A DNA stretch of 64,000 nucleotides from Candidatus Daviesbacteria bacterium (lineage in GTDB: Bacteria > Patescibacteriota > Microgenomatia > Daviesbacterales > UBA10151): NCBI GenBank assembly GCA_030699125.1, contig JAUYKM010000009.1, forward strand, positions 6,358-70,357. The letters run 5' to 3'. Under the pieces are notes generated by a model, which made no database searches, was not told the origin of the DNA, and saw only the letters and a program-made list of their open reading frames with translations. This document shows positions 31,154-49,199 of the stretch, one piece after another (the stretch's first letter is position 1; each line of letters begins with the position of its first letter). The position numbers were made by a program, and so were the translations under genes.

Positions 31154-33721
31154 TCAACTTTTTCTAAATAGATTAAAGATAGGTGTGACAACGAGCATAC
31201 GCATAATAAATAGTAAGAATATACCTACTCCCAAAAGTAGTCCCCAATCCATAAGAGTTAATGGATGGACTTTAAAAAGTTGCTGTAAAGTTACCCCGGC
31301 GAAGGAGATTGGCAGATACAAAATTAAAAGTTGTAAGATCAGGGAACCTGTTATTGCCAAGACTAGAAATGGATTGGAGAAAAAGGGTAGTTTGTACTCT
31401 GAGCGGATGGCTACAATCCTTAACATTTCATAAAAAACAATGGCGGTAAAAACCATAGTTTGTTCATAAATGGGATCTTTTTGATAGATAAAGAAGATCA
31501 AAAGAATCGCAATGGTCAAAAGAACACTAACCGCCATTAATGGTCCTAAAAATCTGCCTCCGGCAATTTCTTCCCTGAATTTTTGCGGGGGAAGATCCAT
31601 AATATTTTTTCTGGGTGGATCAACCCCCAAAGCTATGGCTGGTAAACCATCAGTGACTAAATTAATCCATAAAAGGTGAATTGGCAAAAGCGGTAGATGT
31701 CCTCCTCCTAAAATAACTGCCAAAGATATGACCAAAACTTCCATGATATTTGAAGAGAGTAAATAATTAACAAATTTTCTGATGTTATCAAAAATGGCCC
31801 TACCCTCTTTGATAGCCTCAACAATTGTCGAGAAATGATCATCCAGTAAGACCATATCAGAGGCTTCTTTGGCCACATCTGTCCCGGTAATACCCATGGC
31901 TACCCCAATATCAGCAGCCTTTAGGGCTGGAGCATCATTAACCCCATCTCCTGTCATGGCCACCTGGTGCCCGTGTGCTTTCAAAGCTTTAATAATTCTG
32001 ATTTTGTGTTCCGGGTTAACTCTGGCATAAATTGCAATTTGCTCCACCTGCTCTTTTAATGCTTCATCGGATAATTTATCCAAGTCTTGACCGGTGATAT
32101 TTTTACCCTCAATGCCAATTTGGCTGGCAATAGCCTGCGCAGTTAAGAGATGATCACCTGTGATCATAACCACCCTGATTTGCGCCTGTTTCTGACAAAC
32201 CTCGATTGCCTGTTTCACCCCTTCTCTTGGTGGATCAATCATCCCGACAAGCCCTAAGAATGTGAGGTTTTCTTCTTTTTCGGAAGAACCATAAGCAATA
32301 GCCAATACTCTTAAAGCTTTCCTGGCCATTTCATCATTTGCTTTAAGAATCTTCATCTTTTGCTCCTCAGTCAAATTTGAACACTTTCCCAAAATAACTT
32401 CAGTGGCCCCCTTACTAATTAATATTTGCCCTTCTTTGTTTTTTACTATTACTGACATCATCTTTCTGTCAGAAGAAAAAGGGATCTCAGAAATTCTTTG
32501 ATAAGTTTTTAAAATTGTTTCTTGGTTTAAACCCGAATCTACGGCTGCCTGAATTAAGGCAGCCTCTGTTGAATCACCAATTATTTGGCCCGCTTCGCCG
32601 CGAGGCGAGCCCCCATTTATTCTGGCATTAGAGGCAAGTAAACCAAAGGTTAAGATTTTTTCTTTATTCTCCCCGAAGATCTCTGTTACCTTCATTACCC
32701 CTTCAGTTAAAGTTCCTGTTTTATCAACGCAAATTACATCTGTTGATCCCAGTGTTTCTGCAGCTGCCAAATGTCTAATCAGAGATTTTTGTTTAAGTAG
32801 TCTCCTGGTTCCTAAGGCTAGGGAAATAGTCACCACCACCGGTAATCCTTCCGGAATAGCTGCTACAGCTAAAGCTATAGCCGAAATTAAAGAATCGAGT
32901 ACATTTTGTCCAAACCCAGTCTGACTGGGTCCAAACAAAAATTGTTCAATTCCAATTAAAGCTGCAATAACAAGTACAATCCTGCCAATTAATTTGCCCA
33001 GATTGTTAAGTTTAAGCTGTAAAGGAGTGGGTGGTTCTATCTCTTGGGAAACCAAATGGGCAATTTTACCAATCTCAGTGCTCATACCTGTGGATATGAC
33101 AATGCCGATACCTCGACCCGCAGCAATGTTGGTACCTGAAAAAAGCATATTTTTCCGCTCAGCCAAAATTACATCTTCAGCTAAAGTGTCAGGATCTTTA
33201 GTCACCGGAGTCGACTCCCCGGTGAGTGAGGCTTCATTAGTTTCCAGACTAAAGGCTTGAATAATTCTAATATCAGCAGGAATTTTTTGTCCTTCCTCTA
33301 AAACAATCAAATCGCCGGGTACTAAATTGGAACTGGCAACCTGCTGGATCACTCCGTCTCTGTAAATACTGGCTTGAACCGTCACCAGTTTTTTAAGCTG
33401 TTTGATAGTTTTTTCAACCCTGTATTCCTGGATAAAACCGACAATGCCGTTTAAAATAACAATTGCCAAAATCAAGGCTGCATCTAAAGTTTCGCCCAAA
33501 ATAAGAGATACTGAAGAGGCTATTAGCAGAATAATAATAAGAAAGCTTCTAAATTGAGAAAAGAAAATCTGAAAAGCACTTTTACCTTTTTCCTCTTGTA
33601 AAATATTTAGACCATATTTTGTAAGTCTTTTTTCTGCCTCTTGAGCTGTTAAGCCTTTTTGTTGATCAGTTTGTAGTTCTTGTATGGTCTGCTCAACTGA
33701 TTTCAGATATGCCTTTTCCAC
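31154..33721 (-). CDS. P2-type cation-transporting ATPase (Ca2+/Mg2+-type)
   Basis: TGES, ICVDKTGTLT, PEGLP (type II hallmark) and MTGDGVNDAPALK. Contains a 29-bp GC-rich in-frame insertion encoding GGSPRGEAGQ. Confidence 0.85.
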   Translation of the reverse strand: MEKAYLKSVEQTIQELQTDQQKGLTAQEAEKRLTKYGLNILQEEKGKSAFQIFFSQFRSFLIIILLIASSVSLILGETLDAALILAIVILNGIVGFIQEYRVEKTIKQLKKLVTVQASIYRDGVIQQVASSNLVPGDLIVLEEGQKIPADIRIIQAFSLETNEASLTGESTPVTKDPDTLAEDVILAERKNMLFSGTNIAAGRGIGIVISTGMSTEIGKIAHLVSQEIEPPTPLQLKLNNLGKLIGRIVLVIAALIGIEQFLFGPSQTGFGQNVLDSLISAIALAVAAIPEGLPVVVTISLALGTRRLLKQKSLIRHLAAAETLGSTDVICVDKTGTLTEGVMKVTEIFGENKEKILTFGLLASNARINGGSPRGEAGQIIGDSTEAALIQAAVDSGLNQETILKTYQRISEIPFSSDRKMMSVIVKNKEGQILISKGATEVILGKCSNLTEEQKMKILKANDEMARKALRVLAIAYGSSEKEENLTFLGLVGMIDPPREGVKQAIEVCQKQAQIRVVMITGDHLLTAQAIASQIGIEGKNITGQDLDKLSDEALKEQVEQIAIYARVNPEHKIRIIKALKAHGHQVAMTGDGVNDAPALKAADIGVAMGITGTDVAKEASDMVLLDDHFSTIVEAIKEGRAIFDNIRKFVNYLLSSNIMEVLVISLAVILGGGHLPLLPIHLLWINLVTDGLPAIALGVDPPRKNIMDLPPQKFREEIAGGRFLGPLMAVSVLLTIAILLIFFIYQKDPIYEQTMVFTAIVFYEMLRIVAIRSEYKLPFFSNPFLVLAITGSLILQLLILYLPISFAGVTLQQLFKVHPLTLMDWGLLLGVGIFLLFIMRMLVVTPIFNLFRKS
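32587..32615 (+). repeat. GC-rich mini-element (CGAGGCGAG family) inserted in frame in the P-type ATPase
   Basis: GGCCCGCTTCGCCGCGAGGCGAGCCCCC within AT-rich coding sequence. The same core appears at 14669-14683 and 52861-52890. Confidence 0.6.
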
Positions 33722-33784: not shown

Positions 33785-34060
33785 ATGGAAGAAGAAGTAC
33801 AACCCAAGCCAATTTTTCTGCCGGTTATTTCTGATGAGACCAGGCAATATCTTTTAGAAGAACTCGGATTGGATAAAGATGAAAAGACCCGACAGATAGT
33901 CTCCAGTCTAACCGGCGAAAGAGGTGTAAACCCTTATATGGCCATAGATGATTGGATGATGTCGGTATTCAGTAGACTGGCTGATTACAATAAAGCATTT
34001 GTGGAGATTCTAAGTTCAGTATTAGAAAAAAGATATGTGAATGTTAATGGGGGGGGGTGA
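33785..34060 (+). CDS. Hypothetical protein; may be the 5' part of a gene split at a G9 tract
   Basis: Ends VNGGG* inside GGGGGGGGG (34049-34057). Confidence 0.35.
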   Translation: MEEEVQPKPIFLPVISDETRQYLLEELGLDKDEKTRQIVSSLTGERGVNPYMAIDDWMMSVFSRLADYNKAFVEILSSVLEKRYVNVNGGG

Positions 34061-34458
34061 TAGGTGATTATGCAGACGCAGCTTCAAAAGGGATGGCAGT
34101 TGTCGTACAAGCTTATCAGATTGACAGCGGCAGAAACTTATTTTCCCGAGTACAAGATTTAAGTGAGGAAGATCTGTCTGAAATGGGAAAAATTATGGAA
34201 GAGGTTATCCTACCAACTAACACAGATGTATCTCTTCTGAGGCGTGTCCTAAGCACTCCCAGAATTCCTGAACAGCATCTAAATTTGATATATTGTGTTA
34301 ATAAAACTGCAGAAGGAGCAATAGCCTTAGATGATAGAGAATTCAAAGAGGGAGCAGCGGCTATGTTCAGAATACTTTCTTACTTAGCCCCAAAACTATA
34401 CCCAAATCCTTCACAAACTCCGGAGCAACCTCTACCGCCTCCCTCAACAAATCCATAA
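34057..34458 (+). CDS. Hypothetical protein; may be the 3' part of a gene split at a G9 tract
   Basis: GTG start inside the G-run. Frame offset relative to the upstream ORF. Confidence 0.35.
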   Translation: MIGDYADAASKGMAVVVQAYQIDSGRNLFSRVQDLSEEDLSEMGKIMEEVILPTNTDVSLLRRVLSTPRIPEQHLNLIYCVNKTAEGAIALDDREFKEGAAAMFRILSYLAPKLYPNPSQTPEQPLPPPSTNP

Positions 34459-34561
34459 AACGAACTATCCAACATGGGAGGTTGATTAGGTTGACACCTA
34501 GGGAAAATTTTACTACCATTTTCTTATTGACTCTTGAAGGGGACGGTCCTGAGGTTTATTG

Positions 34562-35236
34562 TTATATCAATCTAAACTTAGCATTCTTTTTATATCTTCT
34601 TCTCAAATATTTCTTTTGGGCTCTGGTTGAAAATTTATTCGTTCCCAAAACCGCCTCTTCCTTTTCAAATAATTTTTCAATTTCTGAGAAATCTTGTTTA
34701 AGCCCATCATAAATAAATTTTTCATATTGTTTTTGCGACTTTTTTGTTTCTCCAACCAGACGGATGATATCTTCATCAAGGAAATAAAGCGATTCTTGAC
34801 CCACAGCCTCTCTGATACTGCTATATGGATATTTCATTGGGTCCTTAATTAGCCCTGCTTTGACTGGATTGAGATAAATGTATTGAGAAAGCTGGATAAA
34901 ATAAGGATCGCTTTCAATTAGAATACTTTTAAACCTATTTTGAAAAACAGGACCATAGTGATTATAAGTACGGTTAAAATACATGGAATAACTGGTTGTT
35001 AGGGAGGACATAATTTTTGAGATGGGGATTTTACGAGTATGGATAGAGATATGAAAGTGGTTTGGTATCAGACAAAAAGCGTATATGGAATGGTCATATT
35101 TACTTTTTAAACGATAAAGCTTATTTAAGAAAAAATGATAATCTGCCTCTTTTAGAAATACAGGCTGCTTATTAATACCCCTATTAAAAACATGATAAAA
35201 AGCATTTTCAAAAACAAATCTTGGCCCTCTAGGCAT
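34562..35236 (-). CDS. Y1 HUH tyrosine transposase, IS200/IS605 TnpA-like or REP-associated (RAYT)
   Basis: HUH motif NHFHISI and catalytic Tyr in YIYLNP. Flanked by inverted GGGACGGTCC hairpin repeats at 34529-34553 and 35283-35300. Confidence 0.7.
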   Translation of the reverse strand: MPRGPRFVFENAFYHVFNRGINKQPVFLKEADYHFFLNKLYRLKSKYDHSIYAFCLIPNHFHISIHTRKIPISKIMSSLTTSYSMYFNRTYNHYGPVFQNRFKSILIESDPYFIQLSQYIYLNPVKAGLIKDPMKYPYSSIREAVGQESLYFLDEDIIRLVGETKKSQKQYEKFIYDGLKQDFSEIEKLFEKEEAVLGTNKFSTRAQKKYLRRRYKKNAKFRLI

Positions 35237-35337
35237 TAAATAAACTATGACATTTTTAGGTTGCTATGCCAAGCTTTATGAGGACCGTCCCTAAGCGATA
35301 TTGCGCTCAGTATGTATGATATGTGTAGAATGGTATA

Positions 35338-36108
35338 GTGAATATTTTTGAAGTGCTGGCTCATGAAGGGGAAGAAGTTGTCGAGGTAGTTGTTCTCAGA
35401 CTGGATGAGGTTATCCGTACTAACTCCATCAACTATACTATCTGGGCTTTTGTGGCTCTGGCTGCTTTGACTTTTTTATCAATTATCTTAAAAAGATGGC
35501 CCTCTTTGAGGATTTTTTTATTTTTAGGCTTTATTCTGGTAATTCTTGGCAATACTCTTTACTTAATTGGTTCCACTCTTTATTTAAATAAGGAGTCTCA
35601 GAGCGGCGGTCCTGTTCACTATCATGCAGATTTTGAAATATATAGATGTGGACAGAAAATTGATTTGAAGGATCCTGAAGGATTATCCAATAAAGTAGGT
35701 ACCAATGTTATTCATGAGCATGGAGATGACAGGATTCACATAGAAGGAGTGCTTTTGGATAAACATGATGCCTCTTTAGGTCATTTTTTTGCAGAATTGG
35801 GGGGGAGTATGGATGGGAATCATCTTACTGTATCAACTAACAAAAGTCTTCTGACTTTACAAAATGGAGACTTATGCAACGGCCGGCCGGCGCTCTTCCA
35901 AGTTTTTGTTTATCAAACCAAAGGTGAACGTTATTTCCAGCAAAAAATAACTGAAAACCCGGAAGATTATATTATTTCTCCTGAGGGTAACATTCCACCG
36001 GGTGATTGTGTAATTTTAGAATTAGATGCTCTTAAAGACAGAACAGATAAATTGTGTGAACAATACTTATTAAAGAAGGAGACTGGAGAAATTAACAATG
36101 GGAATTGA
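35338..36108 (+). CDS. His-rich membrane-anchored protein, possible metal-binding protein
   Basis: Two TM, then HYHADFEIYRCG...HEHGDDRIHIEG. Confidence 0.4.
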   Translation: MNIFEVLAHEGEEVVEVVVLRLDEVIRTNSINYTIWAFVALAALTFLSIILKRWPSLRIFLFLGFILVILGNTLYLIGSTLYLNKESQSGGPVHYHADFEIYRCGQKIDLKDPEGLSNKVGTNVIHEHGDDRIHIEGVLLDKHDASLGHFFAELGGSMDGNHLTVSTNKSLLTLQNGDLCNGRPALFQVFVYQTKGERYFQQKITENPEDYIISPEGNIPPGDCVILELDALKDRTDKLCEQYLLKKETGEINNGN

Positions 36109-46083: not shown

Positions 46084-46527
46084 ATGCATTGTCCTTTTTG
46101 TGCAAGTGTCCTATCTAAGGTGGTTGATAAACGGGGAGTCGAGGGTCGTGGGGAAATCAGAAGAAGGAGAGAGTGTTTAAAATGTGGTAGACGATTTACC
46201 ACTTATGAAGCTCTGGCTAGTTTAGAGATGATGGTTATTAAAAAGGATGGTAAAAGAGAACTGTTTGTGGCAGATAAGTTAAGGTTGGGACTGATTAAAG
46301 CATTAGAAAAGAGACCAGGTATTGAAAAAACTTCACAAATTGTAAATAAAATAGAGGTGAGAATTAGGACTAGAGGTTTGAAGGAAATTCAATCACAAGT
46401 TTTGGGTAGATGGGTTTTGGCGGAGTTGAGAAAAATAGATCAGGTGGCTTATTTGCGTTTTGCCTCGGTTTACAGAACATTTTCCGGACCGGGGGATTTC
46501 AGAAAAGAACTGGAGGCATTAAGTTAA
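46084..46527 (+). CDS. nrdR: Transcriptional repressor NrdR
   Basis: MHCPFCAS...CLKCGRRF zinc ribbon followed by an ATP-cone. Directly upstream of the RNR. Confidence 0.8.
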   Translation: MHCPFCASVLSKVVDKRGVEGRGEIRRRRECLKCGRRFTTYEALASLEMMVIKKDGKRELFVADKLRLGLIKALEKRPGIEKTSQIVNKIEVRIRTRGLKEIQSQVLGRWVLAELRKIDQVAYLRFASVYRTFSGPGDFRKELEALS

Positions 46528-46532
46528 ATCTT

Positions 46533-49199
46533 ATGAAAAAAACAAAAACCAGACAAAACAAACCAATCTTACAAATTATGGCCATGCCAAAAAGGTTTGG
46601 CAGGAAAAAAACTAATGGTGAACATAAAACTAATGGTCACGGGGTAGACGGCAGAGGATTTGAAGACAGATTCATTCCCAGGTATAAAAAAATGCCCCCA
46701 GTGCCCAAAGATTTGCCTGTTCCTACTTTTTCCGAATCATCCAATAAAATTTTACAGGAGAGATATCTTCTTAAAGGCGGGGATCTTAAGGTGGTAGAGA
46801 GTATCTCTGATCGGTTTTGGCATATTGCCTATGATATTGCCTCGGGAGATTTTGATTTTGGCTATAGTGAGAGTGAAGTTTATAAAAATGCTTTGGAATT
46901 TTATACCATGATGGTCAGGCAACAGTTCCTGCCCAATTCCCCCACCATTATGAATGCAGGTAAACAAAATGGTCTGCAGTATTCTGCCTGTTTTGTACTT
47001 CCGGTGGGAGATTCTTTACCGGAAATTTTCGATTCAGTAAAGTACGCAGCATTAATCCACCAGACAGGCGGTGGAACCGGATTTGCCTTTTCCCGCCTTA
47101 GACCTGCTGGCTCAGTAGTCCGCACCACCGGCGGAGTGGCTTCCGGGCCGGTATCTTTTTTACGGGTCTTTAATGCTGCCACTGAATCTATCAAACAGGG
47201 CGGTACCAGGAGAGGTGCTAATATGGGGATTTTAAGAATTGATCATCCTGATATTCTGGAATTTATCAGATGCAAAGCAGAGTTGGATGATATGAATAGG
47301 CCGGTTTTTGAAAAAATTGCTCCGCTTTTGCCTGATGATAAGGCCAAAAAATATTTTAAAACCATGCTTTTAGATAAGCAGATCTCCAACTTTAATATCT
47401 CCTGTGCAGTTACAGAAAAATTTATGGAGGCTTTGGAGGCAGGCGAAAATTATGACTTGATCGATCCTCACTCAGGCGAGGTGGTGGGGCAATTAAATGC
47501 CAAAGAGGTTTTTGATGAAATAGTGGAGAGAGCCTGGTCTACCGGTGATCCGGGATTAATTTTTATAGACAGAATTAATGATTCTCCGGCCAATCCGGTG
47601 CCCAAATTAGAAACTATTGAGAGTACCAATCCTTGTGGCGAGCAGCCTTTGGCTCCCTGGGATGCCTGTAATTTGGGTTCCGTTAATTTAGGTAAGTTTG
47701 TCCGCCAGCTGGCGGATGGCAGCTCTGATGTGGACTGGGAGGGATTGAAAGAGGTAACTCGCAAAGCAGTTCACTTTTTAGATAATGTAGTTCAGACCAA
47801 CCCTTATACTTTAAAACAAATTTATGATGAAGTTCACCAAAATAGGAGGATTGGTTTGGGGGTGATGGGTTGGGCAGATATGCTTTTCAAGCTGAAAATT
47901 CCCTATAATTCTGATCAGGCTTTGGAGTTGGCAGAAAAGGTGATGAGTTTTATCAACAATGAGGGTCACAAAATGTCAGAGGAGCTTTCGAAAGAAAAAG
48001 GATCTTTCCCTAGTTGGGCCAACTCAATTTATGCAGATTCTAAATCTTCTGCCTTTAAAAATAGAGCTTCTGTGTATGCTTATCAGGGGGGAAAACCGAT
48101 TAGAAATTCCACTGTCACCACCATTGCTCCTACCGGTACTATCTCCATTATCGGAGATTGTTCATCCGGAATTGAGCCTGTTTTTGCTCTTGCCTATATT
48201 CATAGGGCAAAATCAGTGGGGGATCAGTACAGGGTTTTGACCATTGCCAATGAGACTTTTGAGGAGATTGCCAAAGAAAAGGGTTTTTATTCTCCAGATT
48301 TGGCCCAAAAAGTTTTAGAACACGGTTCTGTAACAGGGTTATCGGAGGTGCCGGATGAGTGGCAAAAAGTTTTTATTACTGCACCGGAGATTGACCCGAT
48401 CACACATGTTAAAATGCAAGCCATCTTTCAAAAACATACAGATAATGGAGTCTCTAAAACTATTAATCTGCCTAACTCTTCTACGGTTGATGACGTGAGA
48501 ACTGCTTATTTGATGTCTTATCAGACCGGCTGTAATGGTATCACCATCTATAGGGATGGTTCCAAAAGTACCCAAGTTTTAAATGTCTCATCTACTTTGG
48601 AAAAGAAACAGACGGAGGAGTCAGCAGAAGCGGCACCAATTGCCCAAAGGCCCATGATACTTCGGGGCAGAACTTATAAAGTGGCAACACCTGTGGGTGA
48701 GGCGTATATTACCATTAACAGAGATGAAAACGAACAGCCCTTTGAAGTCTTTGTGACTGTGGGTAAGGGCGGGATGCATACTATGGCAGATGCGGAAGCC
48801 ATGGGAAGACTGGTTTCTCTTTCTTTAAGGCTAGGTAGAAATGGCGGATCAACTGATCCTCGGGAGGTGGCTCAAAAGATTGCTTCTCAGCTGAAAGGAA
48901 TTGGCGGAGCTTCATCTGTAGGATTTGGGAAAAATAGGGTGATGAGTTTGGCTGATGCTATTGCTAAGGTGTTGGCTGAGGATTTGGCAGTTTCTGCTGA
49001 TGTAGAAGTGGTGGAACAAGTGCCCTTAAATCTGACTAATGGAGAAGCCAAAGAGGTTAATTCTGAGTCTGTTTCTGATCCGGCTACCAATTACCAACTA
49101 GCTACTAATGTAGATTTATGTCCGGAGTGCGGTTCAGCCTCATTTGTGATGGAAGAAGGCTGTAAAAAATGCCACTCCTGCGGATATTCCATGTGTTAG
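46533..49199 (+). CDS. nrdJ: Class II (adenosylcobalamin-dependent) ribonucleoside-triphosphate/diphosphate reductase
   Basis: TNPCGEQPL active-site motif and a C-terminal Cys-rich zinc ribbon. The track ORF starts at 46410 inside nrdR, so the ATG at 46533 is preferred. Confidence 0.85.
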   Translation: MKKTKTRQNKPILQIMAMPKRFGRKKTNGEHKTNGHGVDGRGFEDRFIPRYKKMPPVPKDLPVPTFSESSNKILQERYLLKGGDLKVVESISDRFWHIAYDIASGDFDFGYSESEVYKNALEFYTMMVRQQFLPNSPTIMNAGKQNGLQYSACFVLPVGDSLPEIFDSVKYAALIHQTGGGTGFAFSRLRPAGSVVRTTGGVASGPVSFLRVFNAATESIKQGGTRRGANMGILRIDHPDILEFIRCKAELDDMNRPVFEKIAPLLPDDKAKKYFKTMLLDKQISNFNISCAVTEKFMEALEAGENYDLIDPHSGEVVGQLNAKEVFDEIVERAWSTGDPGLIFIDRINDSPANPVPKLETIESTNPCGEQPLAPWDACNLGSVNLGKFVRQLADGSSDVDWEGLKEVTRKAVHFLDNVVQTNPYTLKQIYDEVHQNRRIGLGVMGWADMLFKLKIPYNSDQALELAEKVMSFINNEGHKMSEELSKEKGSFPSWANSIYADSKSSAFKNRASVYAYQGGKPIRNSTVTTIAPTGTISIIGDCSSGIEPVFALAYIHRAKSVGDQYRVLTIANETFEEIAKEKGFYSPDLAQKVLEHGSVTGLSEVPDEWQKVFITAPEIDPITHVKMQAIFQKHTDNGVSKTINLPNSSTVDDVRTAYLMSYQTGCNGITIYRDGSKSTQVLNVSSTLEKKQTEESAEAAPIAQRPMILRGRTYKVATPVGEAYITINRDENEQPFEVFVTVGKGGMHTMADAEAMGRLVSLSLRLGRNGGSTDPREVAQKIASQLKGIGGASSVGFGKNRVMSLADAIAKVLAEDLAVSADVEVVEQVPLNLTNGEAKEVNSESVSDPATNYQLATNVDLCPECGSASFVMEEGCKKCHSCGYSMC

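Follow-up and report, generated by a model that had tools for sequence, protein, structure and literature searches.

Homopolymer switches are well known in host-associated pathogens. In Campylobacter jejuni, a low-GC organism, poly-G/C tracts of at least 7 nt serve as the phase-variation device (PMC4965091, PMC8355987), and strain NCTC11168 carries 29 poly-G/poly-C tracts of that length (PMC4965091, PMC8355987, PMC3025981). The tracts lie mostly in genes for surface structures, glycosylation and restriction, and their switching has been measured. Poly-G phase variation has also been described for hmbR of Neisseria meningitidis (PMC3786947). Intragenic G/C tracts switch the reading frame by slipped-strand mispairing in the poly-G tracts of Neisseria hmbR/hpuAB and in homopolymer switches of Mycobacterium tuberculosis such as the 7C tract of glpK (PMC3786947, PMC10334774, bioRxiv 10.1101/717272). 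The functions of these genes are known, ON and OFF alleles are both present among isolates and reversibility is documented by isolate collections. In the HSV thymidine kinase gene a +/-1 G indel in a G7 run inactivates the gene (the 'savior indel' case), and slippage on that run can still yield a trace of full-length product (PMC5009743). At the -1 sites of dnaX and IS3/IS911 an in-phase heptamer (A_AAA_AAG) with stimulators yields a short 0-frame and a longer transframe product (PMC4066793).

The locus described here was found in a 64,000-nt stretch of DNA from a Candidatus Daviesbacteria bacterium, referred to below as the window. It resembles the C. jejuni contingency loci in its low GC content and in its uninterrupted intragenic tract of the G7-9 class, in which changes of +/-1 toggle between a full-length and a truncated product; tract lengths likewise differ between related strains, and the tracts are conserved though the genome disfavours them. 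Unlike the C. jejuni genes, it encodes an uncharacterised, cytoplasmic-looking protein of the Candidate Phyla Radiation (CPR), and it is comparison between lineages that points to switching. As in Neisseria and M. tuberculosis, the frame would be switched through an intragenic G/C run by slipped-strand mispairing and both ON and OFF alleles occur, here among relatives; in contrast to those isolate collections, the organisms are uncultivated and each lineage was sampled once. As in the HSV thymidine kinase, a viral and drug-selected case, a +/-1 indel within a run of G puts the gene out of action. The in-phase heptamer and the short 0-frame and longer transframe products recall dnaX and IS3/IS911; unlike those sites, the locus has an all-G, poorly shifting heptamer and no stimulator, and neither site nor frame relation is conserved. 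The kind of feature is well known, and what is new is the CPR host and an uncharacterised family that attracts poly-G at several loops. In the literature searched there was no report of homopolymer phase variation in CPR/Patescibacteria.

The G9 tract and the break in the reading frame

The features of the locus are listed in Table 1. Direct reading of the sequence gave nine G residues, and the ORF map placed them at the junction of two ORFs in different frames, the second with a GTG start, in agreement with the preliminary description of this DNA. The 3' end of ORF1 reads ...AAT GGG GGG GGG TGA. Since the 0 frame is closed by this TGA and the -1 frame is open from 34048 only, just downstream of a TAA, the overlap of the two ORFs is the G9 tract itself. 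The tetranucleotide GTGA holds both the ORF1 stop and the ORF2 GTG.

Table 1. Features of the poly-G locus and its neighbours, in window coordinates
Feature	Position	Strand	Remarks
P-type cation ATPase, divergent neighbour	31154..33721	-	syntenic in L001 and L003; context, not part of the switch
Whole gene	33785..34458	+	with G10, a 224-aa member of an uncharacterised all-alpha family of ∼210 aa
ORF1, N-terminal 91 codons (helices 1-4), NCBI Q8P92_01330	33785..34060	+	stop TGA at 34058-34060
TAA closing the -1 frame just 5' of the G9 tract	34045..34047	+	not conserved in L001 or L002
Uninterrupted G9 tract, site of the frame break	34049..34057	+	read from sequence; in-frame lengths 7, 10 or 13
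ORF2, C-terminal 133 codons, -1 frame, GTG start, NCBI Q8P92_01335	34057..34458	+	
Y1_Tnp (IS200-like) protein, convergent neighbour	34562..35236	-	syntenic in L001 and L002; context only

The run had been called exceptional for a GC content of ∼36%. The GC content was 38.1% over the window and 36.8% locally around the tract, and the G9 was the sole G/C run of at least 8 nt in the window. Markov models of order 2-5 trained on the window gave an expectation of 0.08-0.17 G runs of at least 9 nt per 64 kb. The run is therefore unusual for the window, yet a genome of megabase size may be expected to hold a few by chance, and its rarity is moderate rather than extreme. What distinguishes the tract is its coincidence with a frame break. 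Nine homopolymers in the window were checked (A/T of at least 8 nt, G/C of at least 7 nt), and the G9 alone coincides with a break; the other eight (seven A8/T8 runs and one G7 at 35799-35805) leave their ORFs intact. The search for further homopolymers of at least 8 nt that had been proposed was run on the 64-kb window and returned seven A8/T8 runs, no other G/C run of that length and no other broken ORF. In the ORFs of the window GGG accounts for 17.9% of Gly codons, and GGG-GGG for 1 of 108 Gly-Gly pairs.

Different tract lengths were translated in silico. Tracts of G7, G10 and G13 gave products of 223-225 aa (223 aa for G7, 224 aa for G10); tracts of G8, G9, G11 and G12 gave products of 91-94 aa (93 aa for G8). 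The earlier statement that a one-nucleotide change fuses the ORFs holds for the addition of one G and fails for the removal of one. The OFF product ends in ...YVNVNGGG, and a full-length product, from an ON allele or from recoding, would be recognisable by the junction peptide ...YVNVNGGGVIGDYADAASK. Two marks of contingency loci were found: an uninterrupted mononucleotide G/C tract of at least 7 nt lies inside a reading frame (G9 in a gene of 224 codons), and a change in its length toggles between full-length and truncated product on in-silico translation.

One gene rather than two

The fused protein was used as a query and retrieved a 215-aa ortholog (P0001, lineage L001) that is 70% identical over 92% of the length; it also matched P0003, a 131-aa ortholog of the C half. 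ORF1 alone matched nothing but itself. An exhaustive profile search gave 88 family representatives (representatives at 50% identity), mostly of 200-220 aa, in which the profile was matched from about position 5 to 215. The 224-aa product obtained by adding one G aligns end to end with this family. The structure of the fused protein was predicted with AlphaFold2 from a 54-sequence alignment as one compact all-alpha domain of 11 helices (pLDDT 93.8, pTM 0.88). In the model, the residues encoded by the tract fall in a Gly-rich surface loop (84-93), a gap-rich, variable stretch of the family alignment, and the 91-aa OFF product covers 4 of the 11 helices.

Against the P0001 gene of L001, dN/dS was 0.23 in the N-terminal half and 0.27 in the C-terminal half at equal dS (∼0.77); both halves are under the same purifying selection. 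The GTG 'start' of ORF2 is a conserved internal Val codon of the family, in the context GTG AT(A/G). The TGA that ends ORF1 is contained in the GTGA of these conserved codons, read one base off frame. Standalone homologs and separate start signals, by which independent overlapping genes are recognised, were not found. ORF1 and ORF2 are the two halves of a single gene broken by one base in the poly-G tract. A comparison with orthologs had been proposed in the preliminary description, with two separate overlapping genes as the outcome that would speak against its reading; the closest ortholog proved to be fused and the wider family to consist of single-chain proteins of ∼210 aa. Q8P92_01330 and Q8P92_01335 should be merged as one frameshifted or phase-variable gene, and several 'short' family members in public protein sets are halves of the same kind of gene.

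The homologous site in close relatives

Each lineage was represented by a single contig. At the site homologous to the tract of the window (site B), L001 reads CAT GGG AGG GTG, in which GGGAGGG is interrupted by A, in frame, and the gene is fused. L002 carries an uninterrupted G8 that places the C half in the +1 frame relative to the N half and would need to lose one G. The G9 of the window would need to gain one G and is OFF in the direction opposite to the G8 of L002. With the G9 of the window, the G8 of L002 and the interrupted 7 of L001, three lineages thus show three states and two OFF frames. The order of P-type ATPase, family gene and Y1_Tnp-like gene is kept in L001, and in L002 within its short contig.

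Exact look-up of 10 predicted alternative alleles (G10, G7 and G8 products of the window; ON forms of L010, L011 and L013) found none of them in the sequence collection searched. The contig of L002 starts 20 nt before its G8, and this start was considered as proof of a population bubble and rejected: the k-mer arithmetic misfits a simple G8/G9 bubble, and the contig start is therefore only a hint.

Poly-G tracts at other sites of the family

Contigs were looked up for seemingly half-length family members, a choice that enriches for breaks and not for a poly-G cause. A second site (site A) was located at the junction of helix 3 and helix 4, ∼20 codons upstream of the site in the window. One-base frameshifts were found there in the G7 of L010 (GAG GGG GGG AAT), the G7 of L011 (ATG GGG GGG AAC) and the G8 of L013 (CTG GGG GGG GAC), and the called C-halves of these three are without helix 4. 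In L009 a one-base frameshift lies at a third loop, in a G5 within the codon of the invariant Gly of the GMA motif. Addition of one G in L010, L011 and L013, and removal of one in L009, restored a full-length family alignment with no further lesion.

Intact genes were found with comparable runs. In L012 an uninterrupted G8 at site A is in frame and the product is 220 aa long. The protein P0091 is 90% identical (196/217, no gaps) to that of L013 after addition of one G; it is intact and carries exactly the predicted repaired junction, SLGGGQFVQ. ON and OFF alleles are thus both present among relatives at sites A and B, in different species or strains and not within one clone. Further runs lie in frame in intact family genes: a G7 in L008 (1203-1209) and a C7 in L007 (6029-6035), both in full-length members, and a G6 in L011 (2560-2565); the places that these runs take are the DGGVAMY motif, the N-terminal Pro-Pro and the LVGGV loop.

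A single common split site for all members known as C-halves only was also considered and was rejected, as P0026 is cut by an IS200/IS605-type insertion with no homopolymer. The other truncated members looked up (L009, L010, L011 and L013) are one-base frameshifts in G runs in 4 of 4 cases. The interruption of the P0026 gene is the end of an IS200/IS605-type element, with a tnpA-like C-terminus and the hairpin GTGCCACGGCTTTAGCCGTGGGT (L004 1-130, L005 1-140, L006 1-85). These three independent assemblies break within ∼100 nt of the element end.

G/C runs of at least 7 nt were counted in family genes and their flanks. The family genes had 8 within 6.5 kb and the flanking sequence 2 within 92 kb (Poisson P ∼3e-12), a ∼57-fold higher density; shared ancestry, which the statistic ignores, reduces the 8 to ∼4 independent origins. 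The family as a whole is unusually rich in G/C homopolymers. The site-A tract has been kept across lineages at pS 0.62-0.72 and 42-44% amino-acid identity, where synonymous sites are saturated, and dN/dS was 0.2-0.45 throughout the family genes compared. The residue preceding the tract varies (Glu, Met, Leu) and its codon always ends in G. That the residue changes while the codon-final G is kept, together with the low use of GGG in the genes of the window, points to selection on the nucleotide run and not on the peptide. Maintenance beyond neutral expectation is seen in the persistence at site A, the 57-fold excess and the low use of GGG (17.9%); at site B taken alone it is suggestive.

Character of the protein and its family

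No significant match to the fused protein or to family members was found in Pfam, NCBIfam, PADLOC or PHROGs, and a sequence-profile search of the PDB gave no match. Foldseek returned no fold relative (best E-values 0.66 in the PDB and 0.5 in BFVD, TM ∼0.15). With a confident model that has no counterpart in any of these collections, the family may represent an undescribed fold or family. Its conserved motifs are LPxISEET...LEELGLD, GMAxVLRAF, PRIPEQQxxLN and GAxAMYxxLxxxWPKL, followed by a Pro-rich tail. No signal peptide was evident from the sequence, and no surface, restriction-modification or glycosyltransferase character, as in the usual classes of phase-variable gene, was recognisable; the product looks like a cytoplasmic all-alpha protein of ∼224 aa.

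Genomic context is not conserved across the family, all known members of which so far come from uncultivated bacteria of the Daviesbacteria/CPR type. Protein- and DNA-pattern scans of genome and metagenome contigs found no relatives, and a word-index protein search started from the 54-sequence alignment yielded too many candidates to contribute anything. A scan for promoters and terminators around the gene gave results at chance level, and Rfam gave no match at the locus.

Proposed mechanism and alternative explanations

The locus is probably a hypermutable poly-G contingency tract, here in its OFF state, within one gene of ∼224 aa. The tract would gain or lose single G residues by slipped-strand mispairing during replication. 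Lengths of 7, 10 and 13 would be ON and give the full protein, and lengths of 8 or 9 would be OFF and give an N-terminal fragment of 91-93 aa. The G9 of the window would be an OFF allele one G insertion away from ON, and the GGGAGGG of L001 an interrupted, 'locked' ON allele. Comparison of the sequences documents a single gene with a one-base lesion, a tract that is polymorphic between lineages in both frame directions, and persistence over saturating synonymous divergence. Intragenic runs of G7-9 with one lesion per broken gene, both OFF frames, ON relatives and such persistence form a signature of slipped-strand phase variation. Length change would then be frequent and reversible within a population (true phase variation), and the tract would have been kept because switching is useful. 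The preliminary description had offered a phase-variable locus, a programmed frameshift site and an assembly error. The first of these gains support from the G9, G8 and GGGAGGG states and from the poly-G variants across the family.

A sequencing or assembly error, with a true tract of G10 and an intact gene, is a fairly unlikely source of the break. Indel errors classically arise at homopolymers, the gene shows no other damage, and the L002 contig starts just upstream of its G8, so that assembly is fragile at the tract. Since unpolished Logan assemblies of a single sequencing project (SRR22387889-SRR22388331) supplied most of the related loci, a poly-G artefact peculiar to that project is possible. 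The runs are SRR22388331 for L002, SRR22388256 for L010, SRR22387896 for L011 and L013, and SRR22388048 for L009 and L012. However, the NCBI MAG and the Logan assembly of SRR13727534, made with different assemblers, both contain G9 within 7,551 nt of identical sequence; among the homopolymers checked in the 64 kb the G9 is the only one to break an ORF, and the genes on either side of the locus are undamaged. Breaks in both directions are moreover found beside in-frame G7 and G8 tracts in the same project, and consensus errors at G5-G9 would be rare if the platform was of the Illumina type; a literature search for the SRA run numbers, aimed at platform and environment, gave no hits. The suggestion of an assembly error is weakened by the second assembler and by the intact ORFs at the other homopolymers of the window. 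A recent, irreversible pseudogene, in which a chance frameshift has struck a run of no switching role in a gene that is being lost, is distinctly unlikely. It would fit a G9 that is off frame, a 91-aa product with only 4 of the 11 helices, a gene of no known function and a genomic context that is not conserved across the family. Against it stand the exactly one lesion per broken gene in five to six lineages, always in a G run and with no second stop or indel, dN/dS of 0.2-0.45 throughout, the survival of tracts over saturated synonymous distance and the intact state of a 90% identical relative (P0091 against corrected L013).

Recoding at the level of expression would leave the DNA stably at G9 and produce the full-length protein by -1 ribosomal slippage on G_GGG_GGG or by RNA-polymerase stuttering that adds a G to some transcripts; at a low level either may occur, but as the main expression route either is unlikely. 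The tract reaches the 9-nt length mark of transcriptional slippage, but its base is G rather than A/T; to our knowledge, bacterial transcriptional slippage is documented for A/T runs of at least 9 nt and not for G runs. For ribosomal slippage, the last seven G residues form an in-phase X_XXY_YYZ heptamer (ending at 34057) with UGA directly after it, and in 4 of the 6 broken alleles (window, L010, L011 and L013) the frame would be restored by one and the same -1 shift, in each case on an in-phase G heptamer. Recoding would also agree with the purifying selection that persists on both halves, and for herpesvirus thymidine kinase there is a known case of low-level compensatory frameshifting on a G7 run that carries a +/-1 indel (PMC5009743). 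In contrast, the shift required is the reverse in L002 (G8) and L009 (G5), and none is required in L001, L012 and P0091, whose genes are in frame. A stimulatory RNA structure downstream was rejected on fold z-scores: positions 34040-34140 gave 0.38, and stretches of 70 nt gave -0.5 to -0.9 in the window (-0.91), L002, L010, L011 and L013. In E. coli GGN codons in the A site shift poorly, and frameshifting on G_GG.G_GG.U was 0.018% when no stimulator was present (PMC4066793). The heptamer of a programmed -1 site is thus present here, a stimulator or SD-like element is not, and neither the site nor the -1 relation is conserved; given these points and the poor shifting of GGN heptamers, the programmed frameshift site proposed earlier is not supported. 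Two genuine genes, or a functional split protein in which ORF2 is translated by termination-reinitiation at GUGA with the G run acting as an SD-like element and the pieces assemble, are highly improbable. A GTGA stop/start overlap is a typical coupling arrangement, the split lies within a variable loop, NCBI annotates two CDS, and in E. coli a G-rich motif can support initiation close by at a low level (PMC4066793). No designed two-gene pair was found in the family, however, where the apparent pairs of L010, L011 and L013 are one-base frameshifts; ORF2 'starts' at what is a conserved internal Val codon, there is no normal spacer between the G run and this GTG, and L002 with its G8 is arranged differently.

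Beyond the single locus, the contingency reading may extend to the family, and we put this forward tentatively: an all-alpha family with selectively maintained poly-G tracts at no fewer than three loop positions, acting as contingency switches, would be, as far as the literature searched shows, the first case of simple-sequence phase variation in CPR. CPR/Patescibacteria have tiny genomes and are thought to live attached to hosts, and they would gain from cheap stochastic switches. If the reading is true, presence or absence of the family protein would matter to the (epi)symbiotic lifestyle of CPR. The repeated association of poly-G with one family of unrecognised fold marks the family for functional study.

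Other observations in the window

The ORF of NrdR (Zn-ribbon and ATP-cone, 46084-46527) and the longest ORF for ribonucleotide reductase (46410-49199) overlap by 118 nt in different frames. The real start of the ribonucleotide reductase most likely lies further downstream, and there is no homopolymer at this overlap. The second-longest G run of the window, the G7 at 35799-35805, is in frame in ORF 35338-36108 (256 aa, no significant Pfam match) and is a possible candidate for a second switch.

The Y1_Tnp gene is bracketed by inverted copies of GGGACGGTCC at 34540-34549 (+) and 35282-35291 (-), and in L001 and L002 a conserved copy of the GGGACGGTCC motif likewise lies downstream of the family gene. 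The synteny of the Y1_Tnp gene in three diverged lineages is more in keeping with a REP/RAYT-like or domesticated element than with an IS that has moved recently.
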